A stretch of 64,000 nucleotides of DNA, taken from Dictyostelium discoideum (Eukaryota). The stretch covers positions 6,080,001 to 6,144,000 of the forward strand of contig CM000151.3 of the NCBI GenBank assembly GCA_000004695.1, in the 5' to 3' direction. Shown piece after piece: positions 13,603 to 56,900 of this stretch. Below the pieces are notes generated by a model that was not told the DNA's origin, did not search any database, and saw only the letters and a list, made by a program, of their open reading frames with translations. The position numbers were made by a program, and so were the translations under genes. The number at the start of each line of letters is the position of its first letter. Within the stretch, counting starts at the first letter, position 1.

Positions 13603-13634
<32 letters not shown>

Positions 13635-13731
13635 TAAAATGAAAAAAAAAAAAAAAAAAAAAAAAAATTTTTAACCACATTTTTGTGGTTTTTAACCGGC
13701 CTTGAAGGGAAAAATTGTTTTTTTCTTAAAA

Positions 13732-13774
<43 letters not shown>

Positions 13775-13910
13775 TTTTTTTATCCCGGAACCTTTTAAAG
13801 GGTCCGATTTATTCATTAAAAAAATAATTTCCAAAGATAAAAAAAAAACTATTTAATTTTTGGAGTCAATTTTTTTTCCTCTATAAAATTTTTTCAGAAA
13901 AATAATGGGA

Positions 13911-14040
13911 AAGAGCCGGGAAAAAAAATAAAAATAAAAATAAAATAAAATAAAATAAAAATAAAATAAAAATAAAAATAGAAATAAAAATAAAAATAAA
14001 AATAAAAATAGAATAAAAATAAAAATAAAAATAAAAATAA
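13911..14040. repeat. (AAAATA)/(AAAATAAAAT)-type tandem repeat
   Basis: Direct reading. Confidence 0.8.
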
Positions 14041-14204
14041 AATATTAAATTGTTCTATTTTTATACAATATATTCGATTACTTTTTTTATTTGTTATTAT
14101 TGATTTTTTTTTTTTTGATTTTTTTTTATATCTTTATTTTTTAATATAACATTCACAATTTATATTTTTTGGTACAAATTTGTTTTTTTTTTTTTTTTTT
14201 TTTT

Positions 14205-14411
14205 TTATGTCGATTTTTCTAAAAAGAGTACATAACTTGTTAAACTTCTAATTTGTTGATTTCCAGTTGGAAGTTCCGATGATTGTTTTTGAATTGGAAC
14301 TGGTTTTAAGGTGTTACTAGCTTTATCGTGTTCCCAACACTTGGATGTAGTAACTTTATTATATATAATTATTTTATTATTAATTTATAATTATTAATTT
14401 TTTTGTTAGTA

Positions 14412-14451
<40 letters not shown>

Positions 14452-14815
14452 TTTAAAAAATAAAAGGAAAAAAAAAAAAAAAAAAAAAAAATCACATACA
14501 TTTAATTGTATCCTCTGGTGAAATACCTAAATATGAACTACAATCATTAACAGTGATTGAAGAATATGCATTTGAAATGAGTTCAAAAGTACGTTGTTGG
14601 AAATTTTCTTTTAATGTTGTAATAAATGGTGTATAGTCATCACCAATATTAATTGAAAGTGAAGTATATGTTATTGTTGGATTGGTTTGGGAAATTGATT
14701 TAATAATTGTATAAATATTTTTTAATTGTTGATTTGATTGTTTGAAATCATTTGGTATTCTTTTCCAAAGGTGTTTTGCGTTTATCCTTTATTTATTTAT
14801 TATTTTTTATAAATT

Positions 14816-14858
<43 letters not shown>

Positions 14859-15171
14859 ATTATAATAATAATAATAATAATAAAAAGAAATAACCTACAG
14901 ATCATTATTAATTAAATATGAAAGGAGATAAACACCATAATAACTTTTAATTAAATCTATATTCTACATTAAATATTATGGGTTAATTTTAGGAAATTAA
15001 TAAGAAATTATTGAAAAAAAAAAATACAAAATAAAAAAAATAAAATAAAATAAAATAAAATAAAAAAAAAAAAAAATTTACCTTTGATTCAATCTCTTGT
15101 CTTTGACAATAATCTAAAATTGCTTTAAAATTTTTTGAACTAATTAGGTTTGCAATTTCTGTGAATGCCAT
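14205..15171 (-). CDS. csn8: COP9 signalosome subunit 8 (CSN8), 4 exons (approx 15082..15171, 14889..14958, 14503..14789, 14205..14340). An (AT)n-containing intron lies at 14411..14450.
   Basis: MAFTEIANLISSKNFKAILDYCQRQEIESK / NIDLIKSYYGVYLLSYLINND / LINAKHLWKRIPNDFKQSNQQL...FELISNAYSSITVNDCSSYLGISPEDTIK / ...QQIRSLTSYVLFLEKST aligns with human CSN8 ([33 protein letters not shown]...QLARLTDYVAFLEN). Confidence 0.75.
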
Positions 15172-15663
15172 TATGTATAATTTTCAACTTCTTTGTTTTT
15201 TAATTTATGATTCTCAACTAAAAATTAAAAAAAAAAAAAAAAAAAAATTAAAAATCAAAAAAAAAAATAAAAAAAAATTAAAAATCAAAAAAAAAAAAAA
15301 AAAATTAAAAAAAAAAAAATTAAAAAAAAAAAGAAAAATTAAATAAAAATCAAATTCTGAAATGGAAATTAGGTAATCTATTAAATAATTTTGGAATTTT
15401 TTTTTCTCTTTCCAGGAATTTCCTTTTTTTTTAGTTCCTTTTCCTTAATTAGTTCCCTATCCATAACTATTGATTATCTTTATTAAAATGATTATTAGTG
15501 TCACTAGTTGCCAACACGATTTTATTGGTAACGATCCAATTTAGTAATAACTCTCTTGGGATTGAATTTAAAAATTTATTCCTTGAACTTAACATTCTAT
15601 TTAAATCTAAAATTTCATTATCCCTTGATTCTAACTTTTCTCTATTTTTTTTTTATATAGGTA

Positions 15664-15696
<33 letters not shown>

Positions 15697-15732
15697 TTAA
15701 TAAAAAGTTCTTGACCAAAAATAATAATATCT

Positions 15733-15985
15733 TTATAATAATTTTAATAAATACTTTAATACATCTATTTCACTTTCAAGTTCTATTATTCTCTTTTCAA
15801 AGTGTATTAAGGCTTCGTTCTTTTCCAATTCGTCATTTGCTTTTTGTAAAAATGTTGATAGTTTATAATTTTTGTCAATAAATTTATTTGAAGTTTCACA
15901 ATCATCATTAATATTTTTATTACTATTTTCTTGGTCATTCTCATTATCATTCTTTTTCTCATTATCATTCTTTTTCTCATTATTA

Positions 15986-16039
<54 letters not shown>

Positions 16040-16386
16040 TGTATTTGTATTTTGGGTTGTTGTTGTTGTTGTTCATTTGACTTAATATTTACAGGTTTAT
16101 ATACAAAATTATTTTTTAAACTAAATAGTATTGCTTCAGATTCTTTAATACTTTCATCTTCATCATCATTATCTTCATTTTCATTTTCATTTTTATTTTT
16201 ATTATTATTATTATTATTAATTTCAATTGATTCTTCATTTTGAATTAATGTAAGTAATTGATCAAACCCATTAAAATTTAAAATATCATTCTCATTAATT
16301 TGTTGTTTTGATTCATATGGTTTTTCTTTATTTATTTCTTTTTCATTTTCAAGTATCTTTAATTTTTTAGGTGTCCTTTCTTCCAT
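15733..16386 (-). CDS. hypothetical protein, 217 aa, acidic/Asn-rich middle and C-terminal coiled-coil (ELEKNEALIHFEKRIIELESEIDVLKYLLKLL)
   Basis: Long ORF with polyN encoded by AAT repeats. No recognisable domain. Confidence 0.4.
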
Positions 16387-16696
16387 TTTTTTTTTATTTT
16401 TTTATTTTTATTTTATTTTTTTCTTTTCAAATAACAGATATATAACAGTTTTTTCAAACATATTATTATTAATTTAGCACTGTTTTGTTGTTGATATTTT
16501 TGAAAAATGAAAAAAAAAAAAAAAAAAAAGATTTTTAAAGTGAAAATTAAAATTAAAAAAAAAAATAAAAAAATAAATATAAAAATTTTGAAATAAATAA
16601 AAAAAAAAAAAAAAAGATGGGTTTGGAAGGACAGGAAAATAGTATGAAATTTCATTTTTTTTTTTATTTTTTAGTTTTTTTTTTTTATTTTTTAAA

Positions 16697-31847: not shown

Positions 31848-32473
31848 TTTTTTTTATTATCTAAACCTATATTATATTTTTAAAATATAATATATAAATA
31901 AATAAAAAAAAAAAACAAAAAAATAAAATTTTTTTTTAAATTAGTTTTTAATAAGAAAAAAAAAAAAAAATGAAAAAAATAAAATTATTTTTTTTTTTTT
32001 TTAAAAAAAAATAATTGACTTTTTTTAATGTGTGTTGTGTCACTTCCACGCGTTTTGAAAAAATTTTAGAAATTAAATAAAAAAAAAAAAAATTTTAAAA
32101 ATTAAATAAAAAATAAAAGATAAAAGATAATATTATTATTATGCTTATTAAATATATATTTTTGTAAATACTATATAATTTAATTTATTGTTATTATTTT
32201 GGGTATTATATTTTTTTTTTAATAATAAAAATAAAAATAAAAAATTTAATTTTAATTTTTTTTTTTAAATTTTTTTTTTTTTTTTTTTTAATTTTATTTT
32301 TGAAATTTACTATTTAAGTAAAAAAAAAAGGGATCTAATAAAATGAAAAAATGAAAAAAAAAAACACATTAAAAAATGAATTTAATTTCTTTATTTTTTT
32401 TATTTTTTTTATTTTTTTTTTAAATTAATTTTTTAAAAAGATAAATTTTAAATATATAAATATATATATAAAT

Positions 32474-33253
32474 ATGTTTAAATTAAATAATTCATCAAAA
32501 TTAATAAATAATTTAATTAAAACTACAACTTGTTATAGTAGTTGTAGTAAATTGTTATTAATTAATAATTCTAAATCAAATAAAATTTTTTATGGTACAA
32601 AACAAGAAGGTAGTGGTAATAATAAAACTAGTGCTAAGGATAATTCAGATAATCTTTCAATAAAGAGTCAAATATATTTAAATTATGACACTGGTAAAGA
32701 AAAAGGTGGTTATATGAAGAAATCATTATATGACTATGACCCAATCGCAACCAAAGCAATTAAAGAATCGACGGAATACTTTGCATTTGGTGATACTCAA
32801 GTCGGAGATATCATAAAAGAAAAACAAGAAAAACAAATCATTTACGTCAAATCCAACAACACAATCTATGACGCAATTAAATTAATGAATAATCATGGTA
32901 TTGGTTGCTTATTGGTGGTTTCCGAAGTCGATGGTTCGTTGGTTGGAATTTTCACAGAACGTGATTATCTTGGAAAAGTGGCTTTAATGGGTAAAAGTTC
33001 AAAGGAAACCTTGGTTCAAGATGCAATGACTACAAAAGTTGTTACAATTAATTCAAAAGTTGGTGTTGTCGAAGCAATGAAATTAATGACTGAAAAACGT
33101 TTCCGTCATATTCCAGTAGTCGATGAAGATTGTATCAATGTTATCGGTCTAGTTTCAATAACTGACTTAATCAAAACCCTTCGTACAAATCAAAAAGAAA
33201 CTATTAAATATTTAAATAATTTCTTAAATGATCCAGGTCGTTACTCACTTTAA
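32474..33253 (+). CDS. CBS-pair domain protein with an N-terminal targeting-like extension (possibly mitochondrial)
   Basis: Two CBS motifs (IYDAIKLMNNHGIGCLLVV...GIFTERD; VVEAMKLMTEKRFRHIPVVDED...GLVSITDL). Confidence 0.65.
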   Translation: MFKLNNSSKLINNLIKTTTCYSSCSKLLLINNSKSNKIFYGTKQEGSGNNKTSAKDNSDNLSIKSQIYLNYDTGKEKGGYMKKSLYDYDPIATKAIKESTEYFAFGDTQVGDIIKEKQEKQIIYVKSNNTIYDAIKLMNNHGIGCLLVVSEVDGSLVGIFTERDYLGKVALMGKSSKETLVQDAMTTKVVTINSKVGVVEAMKLMTEKRFRHIPVVDEDCINVIGLVSITDLIKTLRTNQKETIKYLNNFLNDPGRYSL

Positions 33254-33523
33254 AAATTAAAAATAAAAAATAAAAATAAAAAAAATAAAATTAAAAATAA
33301 ATAAAATTAAATTGGAAATAATTTTTTTAAATATCTTTCAACGTCTTTCGTTTTTTTTTTTTTTTATAAAAATTGATTTAAATTTGAATTATTATTTTAT
33401 TTTTTTTTTTAAAAAAGTTTTTTTTTTTTTTTTTTTTTGGTAACTTTCCTCGTTTTTATAAAATTTTTTTTTTTTTTTTATTATTTCCTACACTCACACT
33501 CAAAGAGATACAGATATATAAAA

Positions 33524-34624
33524 ATGGCCAAAGGTAAAATTAATTTTATTTTATTCAAATAATAATAATAATAAAAATTTTATTTTATTTATTTATTAAT
33601 TTTTTTTATTTTTATTTTTTTATTTTTTTTAAAATTTAAAATTATTTTAGATCAAAAAGCTATCGAAAGTAAAAAAAGAAAGAAGGAAGAATCTGAATCA
33701 GAAACTGAGTCAAGTGAGGAAAACAATGCTTCATCATCTTCAGAATCAGAATCAGAAGATGAATTAAAAGTTGTTGGTGAAGGTTCATCCTCATCAAAGA
33801 GCACTTTTACCAAAAAGGAATCAGCTGCCAAAGATGAATCAAGCAATACCAAAACTGATGATGACTTAAAAGTATTTGTTGGTCAATTACCATCAGGTGT
33901 TACTGAATACGACTTAAAGGAATACTTCTCTGAATGTGGTGACATTTCAAACATTAAAATCTTAAATAGTAACCCACAAAGAGTTGCCGCTTTCATCACT
34001 TTTGCCGATGAAAAGGGTAGAGATACTGCCATCACATACAACGGTAAAGACTTCAACGGTCAAGGTAGTCTCAGAATCAATGGTGCCAATAGCAAGCCAT
34101 CCGACGGTGAAGGTGAACCAACCACAATCGTCTGTAGAAATATTGCATTCACTGTCGATGAAACCCTCGTTAAAGAATTCTTCTCTAAATGTGGTTCCAT
34201 CAGTCGTGTCTCCTTACCAGTCTATGAAGATTCTGGTAGATTAAAGGGTTTCGCCTTTGTCAGCTTCGACTCTGAAGATGCCGTTGAAAAAGCTATTGCA
34301 CTCACTGGTACTAAATTCGAAGGTCGTGAAATTCAAGTTGAAAGAAGTCAACGTGGTGGTGGTAGATCATCATCATTCGGTATGTATTTTTTTTTTAAAA
34401 AAAAAAATATTTTATTTTTAATTATTAAATTCTAATTTTTAAATTTCTTTATTAATTTATTAGGTCGTGGTGGCGGTCGTGGTGGTTTCGGCGGCGGTCG
34501 TGGTGGTCGTGGTGGTTTTGGTAACGGCGGTGGTCGTGGTGGTTTCGGTGGTGGTCGTGGAGGCGGTCGTGGTGGTAGCGGTGGTCGTGGTGGTTTCGGT
34601 AACAAACGTGGTAGATTCGAATAA
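33524..34624 (+). CDS. RNA-binding protein with two RRMs and a C-terminal RGG/GAR box (nucleolin/Gar2-like). Exons 33524..33533, 33651..34379, 34464..34624.
   Basis: RNP motifs (KVFVGQLPSGVTEYDLKEYF...VAAFITF; TIVCRNIAFTV...KGFAFVSF). GRGGGRGGFGGGRGG repeats. Codon usage is strongly biased (GGT/CGT/TTC/GTC/ACC), unlike the rest of the window, suggesting high expression. Confidence 0.75.
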
Positions 34625-35199
34625 ACAATCAACTGCCAAACCCTATCATATATACTTATAAATTACCAAAAAAAAAAAAAAACCAAAAACATCTAAAAAA
34701 AAAAAAATAACAAAAAAATACGAAAAAAAAAAATATAAAATAATAATTTTTTAAAAAAAAAAAAATATATAGTCAAAAAGGAGAAAGAGGGGTTTAATGT
34801 GTCATAAAGTGTTTATACAGGAGAGAGGGGATAGGTGTCTAAAAATATTTTTTTTTTAAAAAATTATTATTTTATAGTCCATCGTCGTCATCGATCATTA
34901 ATAATTACTATATCAACCATTTTTTATTCTTTTCTTTCTTTTCTTTCTTTTCTTTTTATCTTTTATCTTTTTTTTTTTTTTTCCAATTTTAAAATTTTTA
35001 ATTTCTAACTTTTTTTCTTACTTTTTAAATATTAACATTAATTTATAGTTTATATATCATTAAAAAAAAAGCGCATCAACATAATAAATTATTATGTACT
35101 TAAAAAAAAAATAAATAAATTTTTATCTATTAAAAAATAATTTCATTTAGTTTATTTTTATTATTTAAACATTTTTTTTTTTATTAATTTATTAGTAAT

Positions 35200-35998
35200 T
35201 TATTACTATTCATCAGTAACCCTAATATATTTTGAATAAAAGGAAGGATCTAAAGTATTTATAAACTAATATTATTTAAAGATAAATATATTGTTTCTAA
35301 TAATGGTAATTGATTTGGCTTGGAAATAAATTATTTTCAAAGTCTTTGGAAGAAGATTAATATTAATTGATTTCCTTTATGTCCACCCAAATTTAAAGTT
35401 GTTAAAGATTAAGAGTTGGGAAAATTATTATTTTCTAAATTTGGGTTATCACTTCTACCAAATTCTAAATTTGTTAAAGAATAACATTCATTGAAATCGG
35501 CATTATAAAGAAAGAAACCACTAACATTACTTGTAAGTTTAAATGTTTTTATAGTTGAAGGGACATCAAAAGGTGAATGAAATGATTTACCAAGTTCAAT
35601 ATATTCAATATTTGAAAGTAATCTACTATCATTTAAATTACTATTGAAATTATCATTAAATGAAATTGACCTAATTGGGGATGGAAGTGCCAATGGTTGT
35701 ATTGACTTTTGAATGAGTCACCAAATTCAATGTTTGTAACATTATACCAACTTTAATATCAACATTCACTCTTACTATAAGATTTGTAGTTGAAACTGGA
35801 ACTTTGGTTTCAATAAATAATTCCACAGTTTATCTTAAATTTAGAACTGAATTTGGTATTGAACCATAGATAATCGTACTTTGATAGGCATTCAAGATAT
35901 AAAAAAATTAATCCCTCTGGAAGTTTATTTGTTGAAATGATTCCCCCTAATCTTAAAACTTTAAGACCTTTTGGTAACCACTCGATAATGGTTTTCAT
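35200..35998 (-). pseudogene. decayed paralog of the FNIP-repeat gene at 37739..39131. Fragments MKTIIEWLPKGLKVLRLGG... and ...IELGKSFHSPFDVPSTIKTFKLT... have internal deletions and frame breaks.
   Basis: Nucleotide similarity of 35211..35330 to 37746..37860 and of 35400..35700 to 38100..38450. ORFs are broken into 62 and 94 aa pieces. Confidence 0.6.
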
Positions 35999-36000
35999 TT

Positions 36001-36125
36001 TTTTTTTTAACCGTTATTATTAATAAAGGAATTGCGAATGTGTATCGCTTTGTATATATCACAATTTTTTTAACCGTTATTAATAAAAGGAGTTGCGAAT
36101 GTATTACTTTGAAAAGAAAACAATT
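36001..36125. repeat. tandem ~62-bp direct repeat (TTTTTTTTAACCGTTATTATTAATAAAGGAATTGCGAATGTGTA... x2) at the breakpoint of the FNIP pseudogene
   Basis: Direct reading. Confidence 0.7.
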
Positions 36126-36743
36126 TTTTTATTTTTTTTATTTTTTTTTTAAATTATAGCCCAATTAAAAAGAAATAATAAATAAAATATTTTTTTTTAA
36201 TCTTTTTTTTTTTTTTAAATCTAATATTTTTTTTTCACCCACCATTTAAAAAATATCTGTATAATCTATAAATAAATATATATATATATTATTTTACTTT
36301 TTTTATTTTAAAACAACCAATGGAATTCATATATTATAAATATTATTTTAAAAAATGGGTATAAAATGTAAGTATTGGCAAGTTACCTTTTTATAATTAC
36401 ATTTTATACCCATTATCATAGTTATTTTTTTTTCTTTGTTCAGTTAACATAGGAGCTTAAAATTATTGGCATCATATTCATAACAATTATGGAAAAACAA
36501 ATCGAATCGCTCATCTTCTTTTGTTTTCAAGATGGGTGCACCTTTACTATTCAATTTTTTTTTTTTTTTTTTTTAAAAATTAATAACTTTATCCATTTTT
36601 AATTTTAATTTTTTTTTTTTTATTTTAATATAAATACTTTTTAAATTTTTTATTTTATTTTATTATTTAATTTAAACATTATACCAATTTCTATCATTCA
36701 ATTTTCTAATTAAAAAAAAAAAAAAAAAAAAAATAAAACAAAA

Positions 36744-36992
36744 ATGAATAAAATAATTCTCATTGTACTTTTATTATCAATTGCCACCTCGGGAGCATTT
36801 TGTTCAATTTTCAATACCAAATGTAAACAAGTTTGTAAAGAAAGTTACCAATTATGTGTTGCCGGTTTTGACTCACCAGATATCTCAGTGCAAATCGAAG
36901 CTTGTTCAGAAGTATTGGATAAATGTTTTTATAACTGTATCCATCCTTATATAGTTGTTTTCCCAAGTAAATCACCTGCAGCTCATAATTAA
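36744..36992 (+). CDS. small secreted cysteine-rich protein (82 aa; signal peptide MNKIILIVLLLSIATSGAF; 8 Cys)
   Basis: Intact ORF with a clean signal peptide, embedded between FNIP gene fragments. Confidence 0.45.
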   Translation: MNKIILIVLLLSIATSGAFCSIFNTKCKQVCKESYQLCVAGFDSPDISVQIEACSEVLDKCFYNCIHPYIVVFPSKSPAAHN

Positions 36993-37149
36993 ACATAGAA
37001 ATCAATTGATAATTGAATTTTAATTTATATCATCTTTCCGACTTAACTCAAAATTCAATTTTTCTAATTATCTAAATTATTACAATCAACAACCTCCCTT
37101 TTAATTTATTTATTTAATTATTAAACCCATTAACAATAAAATAAGTTTA

Positions 37150-37339
37150 TCATATAATTTAATTTTTTTAATTTATTTTTGTGTGTTTTCCCTAATAATT
37201 TTTTGAATAGTTATCTGATACTTAAATATTTACTATTATTATTATACAAATTAAATTAAGATAAAAAATAAAAAAAATAAAATTGAATGTATATTGCTCT
37301 CCTCCAAACTGATTTAATTACTTGATTTTCTTTTTCCAT
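37150..37339 (-). pseudogene. N-terminal fragment of an FNIP-repeat gene paralog (MEKENQVIKSVW... compared with MDKENQIIRSVWGNKYI in the copy at 39131)
   Basis: 37300..37345 aligns with 39095..39131. The ORF terminates after ~27 codons. Confidence 0.5.
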
Positions 37340-37367
37340 TATGTAATTAATTTAATTTTTTTAATAA

Positions 37368-37406
<39 letters not shown>

Positions 37407-37738
37407 TTTAATTTGTGTGAAAAAAAAAAAAAAAAAAAAAAACTATTTTCCCAACCTGTTTTGGAAAAAAAAAAAAAAAAAAAAATAAAATAAAATAAAA
37501 TAAAAATGTTTACCCAAGTTCTTTTTTATGAAATGAAACTGGTTTAATCTATAAAAAAAAAAAAATCAAAGATGATCGAAATCTTTTTTTTTTTTTTTTT
37601 AATTAAATCCACATGTGGGAGATAATTTCTGCTCGGTATCAAATAAATAAATTTTTTAACTATAAAATAATTATTTTTTAATTTTAAACATTTTTTTATT
37701 TATTTATTTAAATTTAAGGGAAGAACAATTAATTTTAA

Positions 37739-39131
37739 TTATTGTTCATCAGTAACCCTAATATATTTTGAATAAAAGGAAGTATCTAAAGTATTTATAA
37801 AACTAATATTTTTTGAAGATAAATATATTGTTTTTAATAATGGTAATTGATTTGGTAATTCATAAATATTTTGATTAAAAGTTGGACATTGGAAATAAAT
37901 TATTCTTAAAGTTTTTGGAAGTAGATTAGAATTAATTGGTTTATCAAAAGATTCACCAAAATTAAGTGATTTAAGATTTTTAGGTAAAGAATTCTCTTCA
38001 ATTGGAAAATTGTAATAATATCCTAAATTTAAATTTGTTACTGATGATGGTATTTTTGATAATTGATTCCCTTTATATCCACCCAAATTTAAAGTTGTTA
38101 AAGATAAAGAGTTGGGGAAAATAATTTTTTCTAGATTTGGGTTATCTCTTCTACCTAATTCCAAATTTGTTAAAGAATAACATTCATTTAAATTAGTTAC
38201 ATAAAAAAAGAAATGATATGGATCACCACTAAGAGGGGAACCAAAGTTGTCATTGTAATTAGTTGTAAGTTTAAGTGTTTTTACAGTTGAAGGGATATCG
38301 ATACGAGATTGAAATGATTTACCAAGTTTAATATATTCAATATTTGAAAGTAATATATTACCAACTAATTCTTTATTGAAACTATCACCAAATGAAATTG
38401 ATCTAATTGAGGGCGGAAGTGCAAATTGTTCAATTCTACAAATGAACGAATCACCAAATTTAATATTTGTAACATTATGAGGAATCATACCAACTTTAAT
38501 ATCAACATTGGCTCTTACTTCAAGATTTGTAGTTGAAACAGGAACTTTGGTTTTACTAAATGATTCCACAGTATATCTTAAATTTTGGACTGAATTTGGT
38601 ATTGAGCCATAGATAATGGTACTTTGATAAGTATTATCAAGATATAAAAATATTAATCCTTCTGGAAGTTGATTTGGTAAAATCGGTTGTTGAAAAGATT
38701 CTCCTAATTTTAAAACTTCAAGACTTTTTGGTAACCACCCCCCCCAATGACTGATTAAATATTCCAGTGAATTCAATGCTTTTTATACCATTTTTAATAA
38801 TTTTATTATTTAATTGTTGATTAAATCTCCTATTAAAAATTACACTAATCAACGAATCTGGTAAAGAATTTTCTTGTAAAATTGGATTATAACTACCAAA
38901 AAATTCCAAATATCTTATACTTGAAGGTAAATCACCAGCTTCTAAATGTGAACCACCTCTATTTAATGAAACATCGAATAAATAATTTTTATAAACATAA
39001 TTATTTAATTTTTCAATTGTAAAACTATAATAATTACTATTATTATTATACAAATTAAGATAAAAAAAAATTAAATCTCTTATATATTTATTTCCCCAAA
39101 CTGATCTAATTATTTGATTTTCTTTATCCAT
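37739..39131 (-). CDS. FNIP-repeat-containing protein (Dictyostelium FNIP repeat family) interrupted by a +1 frameshift in a C8 (G8 on the coding strand) homopolymer at 38741..38748. This is either a pseudogene or a sequencing error.
   Basis: ORFs 38718..39131 and 37739..38776 overlap in different frames. Removing one G restores ...FTGIFNQSLGGWLPKSLEVLKLGESFQQPI.... Repeats LP..L..L.FG..FNQ.L are present throughout. Confidence 0.65.
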
Positions 39132-39769
39132 TTTTTTTGCTAATTAGTAAAATAATTTAATTATTTTAATAAAAAAAGTTTCAAAAAAAAAAAATAAATA
39201 AAAAAATAAAAAAATTCAATCGAGAGGAATTTTTTTTGTGTGGAAAAAAAAAAAATTAAAAAATGGGGTTGTTAAAAAATTAAATCTTTTTTTTTTCAAA
39301 TTTTTTCATTTTTTATTTTTTTTTAATTTAATTTTTTTTTATTTTTTTTTAACATTTTTACAACACCATGATAATTATCCATGGATAATTACTACCATAC
39401 AAAATATTTTAATTTAATTGGTTACTCGTAATAAAATACAATCGTTGCATTTAAGATCTTTTATTGCATCTTTTGGATTTAGCCACTTCTGCATCATTCC
39501 TCGAAAAGTTCTCTTGGATATCTGTCATATGACTTGTGGGGGTATGTTTGCCAAATATATACCAAATGAAAAAAAAAAAAAAAAAAAAAAAAAAAATAAT
39601 ATTTCCAGATTTTCCTCCTGTTTGGAAAAAAAAAATAAAAAAAAATAAAAAAAAAATAAAATAAATAAATTAAATTTAAAAATATTTTTGTCCCAGGTCT
39701 TTATTTTTGTGAAATGACTGTAATAAATCTGGTTTAGATCTATAAAAAAAAAAATATCCAATATCTTGA

Positions 39770-39793
<24 letters not shown>

Positions 39794-39801
<8 letters not shown>

Positions 39802-40687
39802 ATTTGAATTCGTGTGGGAGATAATTTCTGCTCGGTATCAAACTGGCAGTTAATGGGTAAGAAATTAAATTTTCAATTTTTGAAGTATAAATATCGGCAT
39901 GTCTTTGAAGGGATGAAGCAAATATTGTTGCGTTTGTATGAGTTCTAAATAAACTACCAAAATTTGCATTGAATGGTTCTTTTAATGCTAAACGTTTTTT
40001 ATATCTTTCTGTTTTGAGTTGTTCTAAAAATAATTCTTTCTTTTCACCTGAAAAAAATTGACATTTTCTAATAACATCTTCAAGCTTTAAATTTTAAAAA
40101 AAAAAAAAAAAAAATTAATATAATGATTTAACATTAAATATAAAAAATAAAACAAAAATAAAAATAAAATAAATATTACTTGTAATAATTCAGCTAATTG
40201 TTCTCTATATTTTGGGGAATTTTGAATACCAACTTCAACTTCCAATTCTTTAATGATAACACCAGTTTTCCAACCTTCTTTTTGAGAAGGTTCAACTAAA
40301 TCTGAATAAAGATGATCACCAAAATACATTACACTTCTACCACGCCATTTACTGACATTTGTAAATTGTTTTAAACTTCCACCAACATAAACTTTCTTTG
40401 GTTCGAAATGATTAACTTCATTCCAATCATATCTATCTGAATCTGGATGATACATTCTAAATGGTCTACCTTTACCAAAGAATGATGGTTTATCACATTT
40501 TGTAATAATCACATCAAATACATCTGTCCAATCTTCATATTTTCCATTCAATTGATCATTTAATAAATATTTCATACCATGATTTGCATAAAAGTATGAA
40601 TTATTTGTTAATAAAAATAACTATAAAAAAAAAATAAAAAAAAAAATAAAATTATTAGTATATAAATTAAATTTAATAAATAATAAA

Positions 40688-40750
<63 letters not shown>

Positions 40751-41989
40751 TACTTTTTTACCATGTGATTTTAATTTTAATAAAAATTCACCTAATAATG
40801 GATGTTTGTTTAAATAAAGTGGAAAATCAGAGATGATTTTATTATGTAAACCACCACCTAAATGAACTTTACCAACAGCTGCAGTAACATCTTCATGAAT
40901 GATTCTTGGTTCAAATGCTAAATTATGATCTGTTAAATATTGAATAGTATTTGCAATTAAACAAGCTTCTGGTAAACAAAATATATCACTCATTGGTTTT
41001 AAAAAACTATCACAATAAAGTCTTTTCAATTGCATTGATCCATAAATTTGAATTACCTCTTCTTTTGTCAATGGTCTTCTTCCATGATAAATTGCACCTG
41101 CCTATTTGTGTTTCGTTTTTTTTTTTTTTTTTTTTATAAAATATTAATATTGCATACTATTATAATTATAATTATTATATATATACACACTTACTTGAAT
41201 ATTATTTAAATAATCTAATTTCATTAATAAACCATGATTTACATCAAAATGTAAACCTCTAATTGCAAATGTTGGATCATATTTAATCTCTTTTAAAGCC
41301 ATTGGATATTTTTGTTCATCAACTAAATGTGACATTGCTAAATCATAAATTAAATGTTGAACTTGATCACCATAGTTGGCTAATGTATAATCATAATCAA
41401 ATCCAAAAACATCAATTTCTTCTAATTTTAATTCACTATTTATAAATACATCTTGTGGATCTAATGTTGGTACATGACTAAGATCAACAACTTTTCTATT
41501 CTATTTATTATATATTTTAAATAAAAAAAAAAATTAATATTTGAACAATTATGAAAAATCTATTCAGAAAGAGAGAGAAAAAAAAAAAAAAAAACATACC
41601 TTATACATTTCAATTAGTTGATCTAATGACATATTTAAAACACTATGATGAGTTGGTAAATAATCAGGATCTTTATCATTTCTAAAGGGTTTATTTACAT
41701 TTTTAACCAATGATTGAAATGGTGTTGGGGTAAATAAATGTTTATTATCATTGTTCTGATGTTGTTGTGGTTGTTGTTGCTGATGTTGATCGATGGTATT
41801 GCTTTTACTAGTGTGAGTATCATTATTACTTCTATTATGTGTTGAATAGGATTTAATACCCGAGGTGGTGGTGGTAGAGGAGGTGGTGATGATAGTAGTA
41901 TTACTACTACAATTTATTTTAAAAACATTCTTTTTATTTGATGGTATAGGTAATACCTTTATTAAACTTATTCTTTTATTTGAAAGCAT
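39794..41989 (-). CDS. cytosolic 5'-nucleotidase (NT5C2-like, HAD superfamily, PF05761-type), multi-exon with an N-terminal Ser/Thr-rich extension
   Basis: DVFGFDYDYTLANY (HAD motif I DxDxT). ...VYVGGSLKQF...MYFGDHLYSDLVEPSQKEGWKTGVIIKELE.... C-terminal ...GSLFRTHTNATIFASSLQRHADIYTSKIENLISYPLTASLIPSRNYLPHE aligns with the human NT5C2 C-terminus. Confidence 0.75.
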
Positions 41990-42673
41990 ATTACAATTTT
42001 AAAAAGTCCAAAATAAAGAATAAAAAAAAAAAAAAAAAATAAAAAAAAAAAAGTAAAAAGTAAAAAGTAAAAAAAATAATAATAATAATAAAGATGGGTG
42101 AAAAAAATAATAATTGGTGGGATACTTTTTTATTATTATTATTTTTTTTATTTTTTATTATTATTATTATTATTACTATTATTATTATATTTGTGTAGTG
42201 TGACAATGAAAAATTATGTTATAAAATAAAAGAGAAAAAAAAAAATAAAAAAAAAAAAAAATAAAAAAAAATGAAAAAAATAAATTAAAAAAAAAATATC
42301 TTAACTGCTGCGGTATCAAATAAATAAATTTTTATTATATTATTATGGCATCAGAGTGTTAAAATAAAAAAAAAAATAAAAAATAAAAAAATTAATATTA
42401 ACAATTCTATATATTAAAAATTTATTAAATAGGCAATGTTTTAATTTTTTTTTTTAATTTTTTTTTTTTTTACACAATTACAGTACTGGTTGGAAAAAAA
42501 AAAAAAAAAAAAACTAAATTTAGAGAAAAAGATTTACTTAGTTGGTTAAAATAAAATAGTTTCAAAAAAAAAAAAAAGTGATCCCGTTACTATTAAAATT
42601 TTTTTTTTTTTTTTTTGAAAAAATTACTTTTTTTTTTTTTTTTTTTTTTTTTATCGTTTTTTTTTTCTTTCTA

Positions 42674-42710
<37 letters not shown>

Positions 42711-43588
42711 TCCAACCCAAACAACAAAGGTAAGCATAATTTTTATATGCCCAAAAAAAAAAAAAAAAAAAAAAAAAAAATAAAAGGTATCCAGGGGAAT
42801 TTAAATGATGATCAAAATATATTTGCTATTCTTAGTTATTTATCAATCATGCTGAATGGAAATTTCTGATTTAATCCTCCCTTCATACCTTTATTGGGCC
42901 AATATTTAAATATTCTTTAAATATAATAATACTAATATTTTTCTTTTGAATTATTTAGGTTTTTTTTTTCTCTGATAACAATCCTTGAAATATTTCACAC
43001 TGACAAATGAATTTATTAAATAAAAAAAAAATTTAGTTTTATAAAAAAAAAAAAAGGTTTTCGTGTTTATGATATTTTTTTATTTTTTTTATTTATTTTT
43101 TATTTTTGACTACTTTGTATAATAATTTATTTTATTTCATTTTTTTCTATTTTTAGATTTTTTAAATAATAATTTTTTTTTTTTTTTTTTTTTTTTATAG
43201 AAAAAGAAAATTATTTGATGACTGTATACATATGCAAACAGGCGATATTTAAAAAACAAGAATGGAATTTGGTATCATCACACTTTTTAATTTGTTTTTT
43301 TTTTAATTTTTTTTTAATTTCGACCATCGTTTTTATTTTTATTTTTTTTTTTTTATTTTTTTTTTTATTTTTTTGTGTTTTTCTTGTACAGTCATTCATA
43401 TTAAAAAAATAAAAAATAAAAAATAAAGAAAAACAAAACTATTATACAAATTCGAAACATATCGATAATACAACATAAAACAAATTACCTTTTTTAATTT
43501 TTTTTAATTTTTTTTAATTTTTTTTTTTTTTTTTTATTATTTTTGGAAACTTAAAAATAGTTTATTGCTAATAGTAAAAATATTAATA

Positions 43589-45076
43589 ATGGAGGCATTA
43601 AATAACCCTATGTCAGCACCATTTTTTTCATTTGTGGTTAAAGTAATAGGAATATGGATTATATTTTTTGGAATTTTAAAATTAATTTATGTAGGTATTA
43701 TTAATTATTTATTTTTTATTTATTATTATTTTTAATTAAAATTAATTTTAAAATGAAAATATATATATATATAAATAAATAGATAAAATATAAAGATCAA
43801 ATTGATATAGATGGATTTTTAGAAAGAACAAATTTAAGTGTTCAATTATTTTATATTGGTTTTTCAACGACTAGATTAAATTCAATGATTAAATCAATTT
43901 CGAATGGAAGATATGAAAGATTTTGGTATTATTGGTTTAAAATTGGAAGTTGGGTATCATTATCATTGTTACCACTTTCAATTGGATTATTGATTTATAA
44001 TCTTTTCATTATTTTCATTAAACCTACTGGTATTGAACCAGTTATTAGTCCAATTGTACCGGGTGTTAATGTGAAAGGTTCAGATTCTTGGTATCTAATA
44101 ATTTCAGTATTAATAAGTATGATCATTCATGAATTAGGTCATGCAATTGCATCCTATGTTTCAAAATGTGAAATTAATAGTATAGGTTTCTTCTTTTTAT
44201 TTATAATGCCTGGTGCTTCTGTAAATTTAGATTATGTAAGTAAAATTCATTATTATTTAAATAAAAATAAAAAAATAAAATAAATTAAAAACTAAAACTA
44301 AATAATTAAATAATTAAATAGATTGAATTAGATAAAATTAGTTTATGGCAAAAATTAAGAATTCAGTGTGGTGGTGTTTGGCATAATGTTGTTTTATGTA
44401 TTATTGGTTATTTATTATTATCTTCATCATCATTTTTATTATCACCATTATATAAAATTTCAAATGATAAATTATATATTACTGGTATACCGAATGTAAA
44501 TATTATAATTATTATTATTATTATTAATATTTTATTATTATTATTATTTTAATATATTTATTTTTTTTTTTTAATAGGGATCATTATTAGAAAGAAATTT
44601 AAATATTGGTGATCAAATTTTATCAATTAATGATTGTAAAATTAGTAATAGGAGTGATCTTGTAGAATGTATATATAAAGAATTGGATAAGACTAGATCA
44701 TATTGTATTTCACAAAATACTATAACATGTTTAGAGAATGTTTTTAATAATAATAATAATAATAACACAAATGTAAATTTAAGTAATGCAAATAATAAAA
44801 AAATTAATTTAATAAATCAAATTGATAATGATAAACGATTAAGAGAATGTTTTGGAATTAATGATGCGACAACTTTGGTTGAATGTGTACCTGTTAGTAT
44901 TGATTCCCCATCAGAGTGTGCAAAATCAAAAAAAGAGTGTATCAATTTCAATCAATTCAATTACCATATATTTCATCTTAATTTATTAAGTCAAGATTTT
45001 GATAATGTTGAACAATTATCATTTTTAGGTACTGCTCAACAATTATGGGATTCTTGTAAGTATAATTAAATTAAAC

Positions 45077-47228: not shown

Positions 47229-47302
47229 GTTCGGATGGTGTAGTCGGTTATCACGAATCCTTAACACGGATTAGGTCGTGGGTTCGATTCCCGCTCTGAA
47301 TA
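47229..47302 (+). tRNA. tRNA-Val (anticodon AAC)
   Basis: Cloverleaf: acceptor GTTCGGA/TCTGAAT, D-arm GTGT..TCAC with GGTTA, anticodon stem AATCC/GGATT with loop TTAACAC, T-arm GTGGG TTCGATT CCCGC. Followed by a T-run. Close to the animal tRNA-Val-AAC consensus. Confidence 0.85.
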
Positions 47303-47352
47303 CAAACTAATGCTTTTATAAAAAAAAATTCTCAATTTGAGTGTGTTCGAGT

Positions 47353-47755: not shown

Positions 47756-50700
47756 AAGTAGTAGTAATCATAATATAACCAAAAATATCAACATATAACA
47801 ATATAAAAATTTAAAAATTTAAAAATCTAAAAATTTAAAAATGTAATAAAATATAACAATACACCGCTTTTAGGTAAAAAAAAAAAAAAAATAAACTTAA
47901 AGGTGAACTCAACTTAGGCGAAGAAGAGTTAATAAAAAAACTATTCAAATAAGGTTATTCTACCCACATACCTTGGAATTAAATAGTAATTAAACAAAAT
48001 TAATAGATAATTTCATAGTTAATGGTACTCTTAACATTGTCAGAAGACAAAAGGGTATAACAGTATTCGGTAGAATACTAAAAGAAAAATTCACATTATT
48101 ACACGAGTGTTACAGCACTTTCAAGTATGAAGATTTCCCACTGCAAAAATTCATACTTTACACCCCAGGATATCACTATGTCCACTTTTACACATTTACA
48201 AAAAACATAATAAAAAAAATAAACAATCAAATGGTAAAAGAAAACTGGGGATTGGAGCCATTACTAATAGATGAATGCAACATAGTAATGCTACCAGATG
48301 TGATTAGATATTCATGCATACTATAATTTAATAAAGAAGATGATATCTCAATCATTAAAACAAACATTGATGCTATAAAAGGTAGTAAGCATCCAATAAG
48401 AGCCTTCATCTCTGAATATAACAATAAAGAAATAAGAGATGTTAGAAAAAAAAAAAACACAAGTAATAAAAACCAACAACCAACAACTACAAATACAACT
48501 AAATCAATACCATCAACTCCACCAACAACTAATGCATCAACAACCACACCAATAACAACCACACCAATAACAACCACACAAACAACAACCACACCAACAA
48601 CAACCACACATCAATTACCAACAAGCAATACAACAATCTACAACCTAAACAAAACTACTACTACTACTACTACTACTACAAAACCTATCAATAAAATTAC
48701 TACAAGCAATGGTACCAAGTTTCCAATTGCCAGTAGTATTAGAAAATAATGGAACAATTAAAATTATTACTATGGAACTGCAGAGGTAATCAATCAACCA
48801 ACGCTAAGAATAAAACAGAAGAAACGATAAAAAGAATTGGCACTCAATTAGCACTCCTAACTGAAACTAATTTCAATGGATTCAACCACCACAAAACAAT
48901 GTTCAACTTTGAAAGAATAGATCATGGTTCAGGTAAAGGAACTGGCATAGCAATAGAAAATAGAGATACAAGAAAAGGCCACATATCAATAAACTTCAAA
49001 GACGATGATGGTAGAATACTATCAATTAAATACAATTCCTTTAATTCTATCAACATATTATTGATCTATGCTCCAGCGACTATATCTGAAAGAAACACCT
49101 TCATAATCAACTCAAAATCACTGTTTAAAAAATATAATTCAATCAACCATCAAATAATAGCAGGCGACTTCAATAACAACCACGATTGCAACAGCTTCTT
49201 CGGTACTGAATTACGTAAAATAATAGACCAAGACATGCTACTAGATACTGGTATTGAAGAAAACACTCCAACATTTCCAAGATCAATGAAGAGACTAGAT
49301 AGAATCTACTGTCATCCAACACTACTAAACCAAAATTCAAAACTGGTAGTCCACAACACAGTATTTAACAAATCAGATCACTTTCCCATCACAATCACAA
49401 TACAAACCAACAGAGAAACAGCAACAACAACAACAACCAAACTAGAAAGACTCCCTTGGACATTATGTAAAGAAATTCTCAACAACAAACATATACATGA
49501 TGGGTTATCAGAATTAATCAGTAAGAACAAAGATAAGATCAAATCAGTGGAGGAATGGACGAAATTTAAAAATAATGTCATCAGAGATTATTTAAAAAAA
49601 GAACAAAACAAAATAAAGAAAGAAAAGAACAAAAGAAAATACGTAATCCACAAATTACTTGGAAATAGTGATATCATTCCAAAGATGAGAAAAGAACTCA
49701 ATGAAGAAATAAGTAGAATATTAGAAGAAGAAAGAAAGGTAAAAGCATGGGATATCAAATTAAAACTCCACCTGCATCAAGAAACACCAAGCAAATACCT
49801 CACAAGTATCCTTAAATCCAGAGCCAAAGATAAATCAATATTCCAAATAAAAGATAAAGATAATAAGACCATATCAGATAAAGAGAACATAGCAAAAAGA
49901 TTTGTTGAATTCTATCAAGATCAATATGAAGAGAAAGAAGATAACGAAGAAACCCACAAGAAGTTATTAGAAAAATGGGAAGTAGACGTTGATTTAATCA
50001 AGAAACTCGAGATAGACAGACCGATAAGAATACATGAAGTGACCAAAGCAATCAAAACTTCAAGTATCCACAAATCTCCAGGTTTAGACGGTATCAATGC
50101 ACTATTCTACAAGTACCACATCAACTCAATAGCAAGAATATTGACTATAGCTTTCAACGACCTCCTCACAAATAAGAAAGAAATCCCCACAAAATTCAAA
50201 GAAGGAGTAATAACAACAATATTCAAAAAAGGAGATGAACTAAACATTTCAAATAGAAGACCAATCACCCTTCTCAATACAGATTACAAAATTTTAAGCA
50301 AAATTCTCAACAGTAGATTATTAGATATCACCAGTAAAATTATCAACAAATTTCAAAACGGCTTTGTTCCAAACAGGTTCATCCAAGACAATATTCAGAT
50401 CATGAAGGAAGTAATAGAAATAAGTAACAAAAGAAAGAACAATACACTCATTACCTTTTACGATTTTAACAAAGCATTCGATTCAATCAGCCACAAGAGT
50501 ATCACAAGAACATTAGAGCATATTGGTATCCCCCCAAAATTCACAGCGATCCTACTAAACCTACTCAAAGATACTAAAAACAAAATAAAGATCAACGAAT
50601 TTTTAGTCAATGGAATAACAATCAGAAGAGGAACAAAACAAGGAGACCCAATATCACCAACAATCTTTGCTCTAGTTTTAGAACCACTTCTAATATATAT

Positions 50701-51658
50701 CATCAATGATAATACAATCAAAGGCTTCACTTTACCAAATTCCAAATCATTAAAACTCACTGCATTTGCTGACGACATAGCAACATTTACAAACTCCACT
50801 GAAGAACTAATGAAAATTAATACTAAAATCCAAAAGTACTGCTCAGCAACATCATCATCGTTAAACAAAGAGAAAACAGTAATGATAGCAATAGGAGATA
50901 AACCACACGATCTACCATTCCAAGAGAGTACAGTCCCAGAAAGATATCTTGGCCTCAATTTCACCAAAACAGGTTTAAATTCAAAATACAACACTTTAAT
51001 CCAAGAAATGAAAAACAATCTAATCAAATGGAAATCACAAGCAATAACGATGAAGGCAAAGATGACAATTCTCAAAACATACGTTCTATCCAAATTAACA
51101 TACCATCAATACATGGATAATCTAAATGAAGAACAAATTGAGGAAATCAATAACATGACCAGATGGTTCTTATTCTCCTCAGTTAAGAATACATATACAG
51201 AAGAGAGAAAATACAAAACTATGATGAAAATAGACAGAGCATATGCAGATTGGAAAGAAGGAGGCATAAAATTATGGGATATAGAACTAAGACATATAGC
51301 ATTCAAAATCTGGTACATGAACAGGCTACTCCATAACAACTACAACAACAACAACAATACCTTACAAGAATGGTACATGGAGCAATTAAGTAGAAAAAAA
51401 GCCCCCACTTCAACCCTCAACGATATGTACAGACACTGGGGTGTATTCAGAGTCAAATTTTACCAAAACCATCCAAAGATAAATGAACATAGAAACAGAA
51501 TTACTAAATCTCATCGAAACTGAAAAATTCATCACACTAAAGAAAATCAAACACGACGAAGCAATACTAAAAAACACCAATCAAGATCTTCACAAATACA
51601 AATTCAACAAAGCCTGGCAAACCCCAGCAGCTCCGAACCCTCTTCCAATTTAAGTAGT

Positions 51659-52327: not shown

Positions 52328-52399
52328 TCCTTGTTGGTCTAGTGGTGAGGATTTTCGCCTGTCACGCGAAAGGCCCGGGTTCAATTCCCGGACAGGGAG
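52328..52399 (+). tRNA. tRNA-Asp (anticodon GUC)
   Basis: TCCTTGTTGGTCTAGTGGTGAGGATTTTCGCCTGTCACGCGAAAGGCCCGGGTTCAATTCCCGGACAGGGAG is near-identical to the eukaryotic tRNA-Asp-GTC consensus. Followed by TTTTTT. Confidence 0.9.
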
Positions 52400-52439
52400 C
52401 TTTTTTGGAAGATTTCAAAATTCCTTGTTAAATTTTATA

Positions 52440-53996: not shown

Positions 53997-56900
53997 GAAA
54001 TAAACGAGAATTTATACATATAAAAAATAAATCACTGTTATATCTTCAGTATGTTGCGTTTAAAAGTTACATTATAACATATCATCTAATTGATCACACA
54101 CACAACATTGTTGATCAAAAGATCGAACAACCATCTGGTATCACAAGATATATCAAAGCTGCAACACGTAGTGTCACTAAACACAAAATTCAACATGCAA
54201 AAAATGCAGATATGGCAACAACTATAAAAAATGCTATCACAAACCCAAACATGAACAAAAACAATCAACCACCAAAAAACAACATTAACACCCCACCAAT
54301 CAACGAAATTGCAAATTCCAATCGCAATAATAACCCACTTCAAAATAGTGGTTCAAAAGCTACACTAAATGAATCACTTGATATTACCAATCAATCCCAA
54401 AACAATAATGAAATATCACACAAAAGTTATTCTCCAAATAATAATAACGGGAAAAACTCATTATCAATGAGCAATCCAACCGATCCAACAATTGTACCAC
54501 AAAAACCTCTACAATCTCAACCAAACAAACCAAGTGCATCAACCCCAAATACAATAAATACAAGAAGAAGCAGCAATGCCCTGACTACACAACCAGTCAA
54601 TACTGGTGCTACCAAACCTAGTAAGGTATGAGCTCAAAAATCAACTTTATAACATGGAATTGTAAAGGATTCACTGAAAACCCAAACAATCAACACAATT
54701 CCTACCAAAAAGCTGTTGACACACTACAACTACTTATATCAAAACTTCCACCTCGTCCAACAATCTCAATACTCACTGAACTCAATTCATCACCATTACA
54801 ACTTAAACATGATTTTCCCGATCACATCATCTCTGTCACCAAACGAGGAAATGGTGTAATCATCATTAACCATAACCCAAACTCACTCAAACTCAAACAC
54901 ATATCAACAATTGATGGTAGAGCTATTTTAGCAGACGTTATATTTCCAAATCAATTACCAATTGGTATTCTTGGAATTTACGCACCAGTATCAAATAATA
55001 CCATCAAAAAGAATTCATATGCAACTTCACTACAAACACTTCTCCACAACCACTCAACAAACCCAATACCAAACCAATCCCAACATGTATCTATTATCTC
55101 AGGAGATTTCAACTGTATCCACAACGACAATTCACTATTAGATGATATTATCCAATCCTACACATACCAACACCATCTAATTGATCAAGGTGAATTTAAA
55201 AACACTCCAACTCATACACATGGTAACAGATTAGATAGAATATATACTCAATACAATAGAATAGACCCTGAAAATATATATACTCAAGTCCACCAAATTC
55301 CATCTTCATTATCAGATCATAATCCAATATCAACAACAATTTCTTCACCTTTTCAAATAAATAAACATAAGAAAAGATGGATATTATCACCTGGTACTAT
55401 AAATGACCATGAAGCAATCAATATTATCAATCATTTAATAACTAATCACAATAACACATCAATCAATCAATTTACAAACTGGTCAAAAGTAAAATCAAAA
55501 ATTATTAAAACTCTAAAAAACTATCAATATAACAAAGACAAACAAACCCAACGTGCAAAACAAATACTATTAGAAAAAGCAGCAAAATTCAAACATCTTG
55601 AAGAACAATGCATCGCCGAATACAATATTATATGTAACAAAAACAAATTACATCAAAACCACACAAACATATTAAAAAAACATATAAATGGAGAAATACC
55701 TAGCAAGTATCTATCAGCAATACTAAACAAAAGATCAAAAGATGCAAAAATTGAATCAATCCAATATGGTAACATCATTACATCCGACCCCGACCAAATT
55801 GAAAATGCATTTGTTGAATTCTACACAAATCTATATAGCTTACAAATATGTTGTCCAATTACTCACCAGCTCATGCTAAACACATGGTCCATCATAAAAA
55901 ATGAATATTGGAATGGTTTAGACTCACCATTTATACAAGATGAAGTTGAAGCTGCAATTAAAACCTGTTACCCCAACAAATCACCCGGTCCAGATGGCGT
56001 TACAAATGCATTCTACATTAATCATTTAAACCAAGTTAAACCAATTCTCACTGCATTATTCAACGATATACTAGAAAATCCTCACCACATCACAACAGAA
56101 TTCACCGAAGGTCTTATACACACAATATACAAGAAAGGCAACCCCTTACTCATATCAAATCGTCGTCCCATTACACTTCTAAACACTGATTACAAGATCC
56201 TCTCAAAAGTAATCAATGCACGTCTTCTGAGAATACTTCCTTTCATCATCAATAACAACCAAACTGGTTTCGTACCCCACAGATTCATCATAGACAACAT
56301 CATCAACATCAATGAATTAATCAACTACCTCAAATCTAAAAACCTCCCTGGTATCATCACACTATTTGACTTCTTTAAAGCATTTGATTCTATCTCTCAC
56401 GATAGTATTAAAAGAACATTAATTCATATGGTATACCAATAAAATTAATAAATTTAATCCACAAGCTATTATCTGACTTACAAGCAAAAATTTCAATTAA
56501 TGGTAAAACAACCAGAAAATTCGATATTAAAATAGGTGTAAAACAAGGTGACCCAATCTCAGCCACTTTATTTGTAATTGTAATTGAAATATTAGCAAGA
56601 ACAATAAATGCAGACAATTCAATAATTGGTTTACCAATTTCACCCAATCCACAAATTAAAATCAAATTTACCCAATTTGCAGACGACTCTACAACATACA
56701 ACATCAACTACGAACAACAACAACAATCAATCAAACATTTCGATAATTTCTGCGCTTCAACATCATCATCATTAAATTTTGACAAAAGTGCAATAATAGA
56801 AATCAACCCCCACAAAATCACTGATAAACACATAATAAACAATATTCCACAATCAAAAAGAATACCAATAACCAAAAAAGATCAATCAGAAAGAGTCCTT

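Follow-up and report, generated by a model that had tools for sequence, protein, structure and literature searches.

How does the end of one gene come to lie, as an exact copy, among pieces of its neighbour? This question is raised by a stretch of 64,000 nucleotides (nt) from chromosome 2 of Dictyostelium discoideum AX4, hereafter the window, in which a 5'-nucleotidase gene (nt5, DDB_G0275467), an FNIP-repeat gene (DDB_G0275465) and a gene for a small predicted secreted protein (DDB_G0275463) stand close together. A 29-mer from the end of nt5, GTGGGAGATAATTTCTGCTCGGTATCAAA, occurs exactly twice in the window, at 39814..39842 and at 37615..37643, and none of 100 shuffles gave a match. An earlier sequence-only reading had explained this by a rearranged tandem duplication of the FNIP gene that took the 3' end of nt5 with it. 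We find two plain head-to-tail units instead of a rearranged array, and consider it highly probable that a local head-to-tail tandem duplication was followed by decay of both copies. For comparison, we used eight orthologous loci (L001-L008), found through look-ups of the nucleotidase and FNIP orthologues in assemblies that are apparently those of PMC12745789.

Self-alignment of the window by blastn with the low-complexity filter on gave four blocks in the region: 35109-35373 with 37641-37942 (73% identity, expectation value (E) 1e-54), 35364-35981 with 38060-38738 (79%, E 1e-174), 37225-37440 with 39029-39263 (72%, E 1e-34) and 37420-37643 with 39574-39842 (72%, E 1e-34). All four join sequences on the same strand in identical order. 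As collinear same-strand blocks are left after filtering, the similarity represents a collinear duplication, in line with the sequence-only reading, which had called for a self-comparison and would have given way to similarity of low complexity alone. The region is extremely AT-rich and an unfiltered run returned hundreds of matches between A/T runs, which might suggest low complexity, chance or an artefact of the AX4 assembly. However, the blocks persist with the filter on at E values from 1e-34 to 1e-174, there is protein-level homology to a Pfam family, and the AX4 structure is reproduced in three independent long-read assemblies, an AX4-like one (L001) and two from wild D. discoideum strains (L003 and L004). 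The agreement of the three assemblies excludes an assembly artefact, and we give this whole group of explanations practically no chance of being right.

Together with the alignment to the single-copy locus of D. cf. discoideum ACTFIY (L008), the blocks delimit a proximal (right) unit of 2,199 bp at 37644..39842 and a distal (left) unit of 2,535 bp at 35109..37643, both on the minus strand and the latter interrupted by an insertion. Read in gene orientation, a unit consists of the last 15 nt5 codons, the stop codon, the nt5 3' flank, the intergenic region between nt5 and the FNIP gene, and the FNIP gene, and stops in the FNIP 3' flank ∼95 nt past the FNIP stop codon. The proposal that the duplicated unit ran from the FNIP gene through the 3' end of nt5 is thus upheld by the self-alignment and by the single-copy orthologous loci alike. 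An intergenic segment of 310 bp flanked by A runs (39264..39573) occurs in the proximal unit only; it is partly present in the single-copy locus L008 and is therefore ancestral and was deleted from the distal unit.

Within nt5, the 29-mer (39814..39842, minus strand) marks the outer breakpoint of the unit. It contains the codons for LIPSRNYLPH, which are followed by EFKLN and the stop, leaving five codons ahead of the stop codon. The sequence-only reading had taken the 29-mer for the entire last coding exon, encoding SLIPSRNYLPH; it does belong to the nt5 end, but is merely part of a last exon of 291 nt (40084..39794), and the exon model reads LIPSRNYLPH. The 29-mer is conserved in nt5 at each of the eight loci. 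Its second, exact copy at 37615..37643 (minus strand) follows the stop codon of the proximal FNIP gene at a distance of ∼95 nt and is an orphan nt5 3' end, as had been recognized with coordinates 1-3 nt off. Beyond the orphan 29-mer, ∼70% identity runs on through another 200 nt of nt5 3' flank. The duplication junction falls at 37641..37643, where AAA (TTT on the gene strand) is common to the breakpoints on the nt5 side and on the FNIP-flank side. Joining the FNIP 3' flank to nt5 codons, it reads ...aaaaatttattta/TTTGATACCGAGCAG... (slash, junction), and as TTT is found in both parental sequences, the two sides share 3 nt of microhomology. The junction is the same in AX4, L001, L003 and L004. 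In L003, the orphan has an internal 24-nt tandem duplication of its own (14190..14250), with tttgatactgagcagaaaa occurring twice.

The orthologous loci form a copy-number series. D. firmibasis (L002) has no FNIP gene, nt5 and the RRM gene being only ∼510 bp apart, and D. citrinum (L006) has just an FNIP relic of ∼360 bp between these two genes. One FNIP gene and one 29-mer are present in D. dimigraforme (L007) and in D. cf. discoideum ACTFIY (L008). Both have the order nt5-FNIP-RRM with an undisturbed flank ('...tttatttatttattttttaagtac'), and in L008 the FNIP 3' flank runs directly into '...ttttttaagtacataataa', which in AX4 lies outside the array. The L008 locus aligns as one block with 44000..37641 of the window and then continues at 35369..32005, as expected of a locus before duplication or after collapse. 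Two units in the AX4 architecture are found in the AX4-like assembly L001 (99.8% identical) and in D. discoideum ACTFIW (L003) and ACTFIR (L004), the last two of which share with AX4 the junction with the orphan, a 1.2-kb insertion, an intact DDB_G0275463 and a decayed distal copy; a further deletion of ∼375 bp has removed the N-terminal fragment of their distal copy. D. cf. discoideum ACTFIZ (L005) has a three-unit array (12344..16440) that lacks the 1.2-kb insertion and comprises a full copy (452 aa), a C-terminal fragment of 55 residues and a near-full-length distal copy (residues 38-462 in one frame). The locus and its relatives therefore show what defines a tandem segmental duplication: adjacent collinear copies on the same strand, a novel junction, and single-copy relatives whose outer flanks are the same. 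A neighbour-joining tree built from the ∼650 nt shared by the FNIP copies places the proximal copies of AX4, L003 and L004 together and likewise their distal copies, indicating that duplication and insertion predate the split of these three.

Two further observations concern single loci of this series. The single-copy FNIP gene of L008 changes frame near residue 338, at ∼8981..8987 (tblastn frames 3 then 2), and may also be a pseudogene, or else the assembly may be in error there. In L006, ∼3 kb of unrelated sequence (12465..15572) with three small called genes, none with a Pfam match, separates nt5 from the FNIP relic.

What, then, are the FNIP pieces of the distal unit? The sequence-only reading had counted three related FNIP pieces in tandem, a decayed copy, an N-terminal fragment and a near-complete copy. 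The pieces are indeed related and in tandem, but the first two are halves of one distal copy. When the proximal protein is searched by tblastn, its residues 1-37 are matched by 37339..37217 and 132-462 by 35980..35209; the matches use three different frames and contain in-frame stops. The N-terminal fragment (37217..37339, minus strand) carries an in-frame stop, and the decayed body (35206..35998, minus strand) has several frameshifts and stops and one repeat deleted; a distal open reading frame still matches PF05725 at E 2e-6. Between the halves lies the insertion of ∼1.2 kb (35999..37216), to which nothing in the proximal unit corresponds and which takes the place of ∼95 codons (∼240-290 bp of coding sequence). 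L001, L003 and L004 have it (90-100% identity) and L002 and L005-L008 do not, so that it is confined to D. discoideum sensu stricto. It contains a tandem repeat (36002..36131; period 59-63 bp, 2.1 copies, 81% matches) at one edge, a hairpin (36354..36414) whose 18-bp stem is perfect and whose loop has 25 nt, ∼330 bp upstream of DDB_G0275463, and that gene itself, on the strand opposite to the FNIP sequence. The sequence-only reading had placed a 62-bp repeat and the Cys-rich reading frame at the rearrangement junction; both exist, but both sit inside the insertion, and the junction is at 37641..37643.

The insertion was also considered as a transposable element and rejected, as its inverted repeats are only A/T runs and FNIP sequence was replaced, with no target-site duplication. 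No further copies of it were found in the window or the eight loci, and its sole open reading frame is that of the 82-residue secreted-type protein, which has no Pfam match. A retrocopy or processed pseudogene was likewise rejected for the distal copy, which extends over the upstream intergenic region into the neighbouring gene and adjoins its parent. In L003 and L004, the stem of the hairpin is unchanged and its loop has four substitutions. Neither the hairpin nor the 310-bp segment matched an Rfam family in a search of 34500..43000 at E<=1, and at the gathering threshold the whole window gave no Rfam match within the FNIP duplication region.

A third, partial match to the 29-mer had been reported at 42301..42330, and it too proved real, although it is not a third nt5 end. 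It occupies 42301..42333 (minus strand), ∼320 bp upstream of the nt5 start codon, with 23 nt exact (AAAAATTTATTTATTTGATACCG) and then AGCAG after one extra base, and by blastn 42305-42333 is 96.6% identical to 37629-37656. As the match covers FNIP 3' flank as well as nt5 end, and so spans the junction, it is either a secondary copy of the junction or a product of chance. For its 13-mer core, the expectation is 0.09 even with one mismatch permitted. L001, L003 and L004 have the motif exactly, and the orthologous site differs in D. citrinum ('...ataaaaa gaattctgagcagttgagatat'), D. firmibasis and ACTFIZ. The match is thus present only in lineages with the AX4-type junction, where it is placed between a pre-existing AAAAA and AGCAG. 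It may be a short templated copy, that is, a repair patch, and may also be due to chance. Another 13-mer match, at 54986..54998, was dismissed as chance, lying in coding sequence without extended similarity.

Could the three FNIP pieces instead have arisen in at least two rounds of duplication plus rearrangement, the N-terminal fragment being the remnant of a third copy? The ACTFIZ array demonstrates that this locus can give rise to three units, one of them no more than a C-terminal fragment. In AX4, however, the two distal pieces complement each other (residues 1-37 and 132-462), stand in the right order and orientation and have one set of flanks; there is a single orphan nt5 end and a single junction; and in L003 and L004 the same insertion directly abuts the junction region. 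We therefore hold repeated rounds to be very improbable. Somewhat less remote, yet still unlikely, is the idea that the orphan 29-mer has been kept identical to nt5 by gene conversion or by a function, for example as a 3'-end or regulatory element of the proximal FNIP gene. The orphan is identical at 30 of 30 positions in AX4 within a block of ∼70% identity, a synonymous C/T variant at base 25 of the 29-mer is common to orphan and nt5 within each strain (C/C in AX4, T/T in L003 and L004), and there is the junction copy upstream of nt5. But the two units share further exact runs, of 25-38 nt, elsewhere, among which the 30-nt run of the orphan is not an outlier, and the orphan is altered both in L004, where it carries one C>T change, and in L003, by its 24-nt duplication; L005 has no recognisable orphan nt5 end. 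Nor does any open reading frame, splice site or Rfam family (34500..43000, E<=1) cover it in AX4.

A single local tandem duplication faces evidence of its own that does not fit readily. The ACTFIZ array has three units and a different junction, and its two long copies cluster together, so that one event cannot explain all lineages. Its junction, '...tttatttatttattttttaagta/aaaaaattatct...' (left side ...ttttttaagta), includes 13 nt of outer flank that are missing at the AX4 junction and lacks TTTGATACCGAGC. Either ACTFIZ underwent an independent duplication at nearly the same points or its array was remodelled. In addition, the proximal and distal copies of AX4 differ by 0.22, compared with 0.16-0.18 from either of them to the L005 and L008 copies; the event may be older or younger than the L005 and L008 species splits. 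One tentative reading, to which we give rather less credence than to its opposite, is that the interval between nt5 and the FNIP gene is a site of recurrent breakage and repair. The junctions of D. discoideum sensu stricto and ACTFIZ lie ∼13-15 nt apart on each side, which suggests such recurrence and would mean independent duplications, and the 23-nt junction copy at 42311..42333, 4.7 kb away in the nt5 promoter region, looks like the footprint of templated repair.

For the lineage leading to AX4, we still favour duplication in place followed by decay. A segment of ∼2.2 kb would have been duplicated in the ancestor of D. discoideum sensu stricto, with one breakpoint in the last nt5 exon, 15 codons before the stop, and the other ∼95 nt downstream of the FNIP stop. 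As the ends share only 3 nt of microhomology, we infer that they were joined by a non-homologous or replication-based process and not by unequal crossing-over between long repeats. The nucleotidase gene would have stayed whole because the copy was placed in tandem, its truncated 3' end being left as a presumably non-coding orphan between two FNIP genes, and the new FNIP copy would have been born with its entire upstream intergenic region. Later, a segment of ∼1.2 kb with DDB_G0275463 would have replaced ∼95 codons of the distal copy, which would then have gathered frameshifts and stops; the distal unit would also have lost the 310-bp intergenic segment flanked by A runs, and CR116C/OT3A-type strains ∼375 bp more. 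Last, in the laboratory lineage (AX4 and the AX4-like assembly), the proximal copy gained a +1 frameshift in a run of eight G.

This frameshift bears on how the proximal gene DDB_G0275465 (37739..39131, minus strand) is annotated. The run of eight G (C on the plus strand) at 38738..38745 is identical in AX4 and in the independent assembly L001; the wild strains have TTAGGAGGATGG there, and their proximal orthologue is intact with 463 aa (L003 and L004). Once one G is removed, the AX4 gene likewise encodes 463 aa, with nine FNIP repeats matching PF05725 at E 1.6e-58 and 195 bits, compared with a Pfam gathering cutoff of 21. The annotation skips the frameshift by means of an 85-nt GT..AG 'intron' (38704..38788, minus strand), and removal of this stretch reproduces the annotated protein of 435 aa (P0008). 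Its GC content, however, is 33%, as against 2-13% in the four nt5 introns, and in the wild strains the same stretch is an in-frame FNIP repeat. The 'intron' is therefore probably not a real one but an annotation device that hides the frameshift, and DDB_G0275465 is, judging from its reading frame, probably a pseudogene in the AX4/AX2 lineage. The ratio of non-synonymous to synonymous substitution rates (dN/dS) of the proximal gene is 0.34-0.38 in comparison with D. dimigraforme and 0.5-0.7 (to 0.72) within the discoideum clade, values that indicate weak constraint on the FNIP gene. FNIP orthologues are 68-83% identical, but the nearest paralogues elsewhere only ∼33%, which shows that the duplication was purely local.

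The reading frame within the insertion (36744..36992, plus strand), which the sequence-only reading had noted as intact, corresponds to the annotated gene DDB_G0275463 and matches XP_643644 exactly. It encodes a predicted secreted protein of 82 aa with seven family-invariant cysteines and no Pfam match. Three AX4 paralogues are encoded on the same chromosome, DDB_G0275489 (80%), DDB_G0275491 (74%) and DDB_G0275903 (65%), and throughout the four-member family the hydrophobic N-terminus is near-identical and the seven cysteines are invariant. When 1.84 billion proteins were searched with a profile of the four members, the only additions were a D. firmibasis protein (RB653_002514), encoded on a chromosome that also carries the nt5 orthologue of that species, and two marginal matches; a tblastn search of the window and the eight loci with the 82-aa protein gave no paralogue. 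In L003 and L004, DDB_G0275463 is intact at 96.5% nucleotide identity with six amino-acid changes, and any dN/dS value for it would be computed from only 8-9 differences.

The nucleotidase gene itself (39794..41989, minus strand) is intact, with exons at 41989-41600, 41500-41195, 41101-40754, 40620-40180 and 40084-39794. Translation of this five-exon model gives exactly the annotated protein of 591 aa ('5'-nucleotidase domain-containing protein'), which matches PF05761 over profile positions 1-459 of 460 (E 1.3e-153, 512.7 bits) and contains the HAD motif I DxDxT as FDYDYT. With a full-length domain and this motif, DDB_G0275467 resembles the cytosolic 5'-nucleotidase family (PF05761, HAD superfamily), of which only the last 49 nt of this one member take part in the duplication. 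Each of the eight loci has one conserved copy of the gene. Most of its third intron is filled by a long (ATT)n microsatellite (40680..40750), which would give a run of Asn if read through. Between nt5 and the next gene lies the C/D-box small nucleolar RNA gene DdR17 (42802..42871, plus strand; Rfam, full length, 101 bits), the sole Rfam match in 34500..43000; its conservation is 100% among D. discoideum strains and 87-94% in sister species. Farther along the window, genes for the transfer RNAs (tRNAs) tRNA-Val(AAC) (47229..47303) and tRNA-Asp(GTC) (52328..52400) flank an open reading frame of 924 aa (48749..51523) containing AP-endonuclease and reverse-transcriptase domains. It looks like a tRNA-gene-associated retrotransposon without long terminal repeats (non-LTR). 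A matching element is listed in the gene table of L001 and is not at the corresponding position in L003-L005.

How does this locus compare with known gene families? A literature search with the identifiers of DDB_G0275463, DDB_G0275465 and DDB_G0275467 and of two paralogues gave no relevant match. The tgr genes of Dictyostelium are a lineage-specific family that evolves by birth-and-death tandem duplication (PMC12745789), and the present locus resembles such families in its local head-to-tail copies, copy-number variation between strains and species, rapid divergence and frequent pseudogenes. Unlike them, the AX4 array is tiny (two units), both of its copies lack an open reading frame and there is no sign of a hypermutable or selected locus; moreover, the co-duplicated end of the neighbouring gene merely marks the breakpoint. 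Dictyostelium has hundreds of FNIP or FGxxFN leucine-rich-repeat genes, and structures of FNIP/FGxxFN repeat proteins have been reported (PMC9525666). With nine repeats above the Pfam threshold and FG..FN/LP motifs, the gene studied here is like other FNIP proteins (PF05725), yet differs in belonging to a small subfamily confined to this locus. As in partial-gene duplicates that leave orphan exon relics, the truncated 3' end of a neighbour was carried along, because the breakpoint fell inside nt5, and the parent gene remained intact; in contrast to such relics, only 15 codons and 3' flank were copied, and we see no sign of a chimeric transcript or exon capture.

Overall, annotated genes have here undergone an ordinary birth-and-death tandem duplication and subsequent pseudogenisation, and no new kind of element or mechanism is revealed. 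A practical by-product is the probable mis-annotation of DDB_G0275465 (435 aa). AX4 and AX2-type strains are probably without a functional copy of this FNIP gene, which in wild strains is an intact gene of 463 aa. The series of zero, one, two and three copies across the D. discoideum species complex, with breakpoints at base-pair resolution, could illustrate the turnover of FNIP and other large gene families of Dictyostelium.

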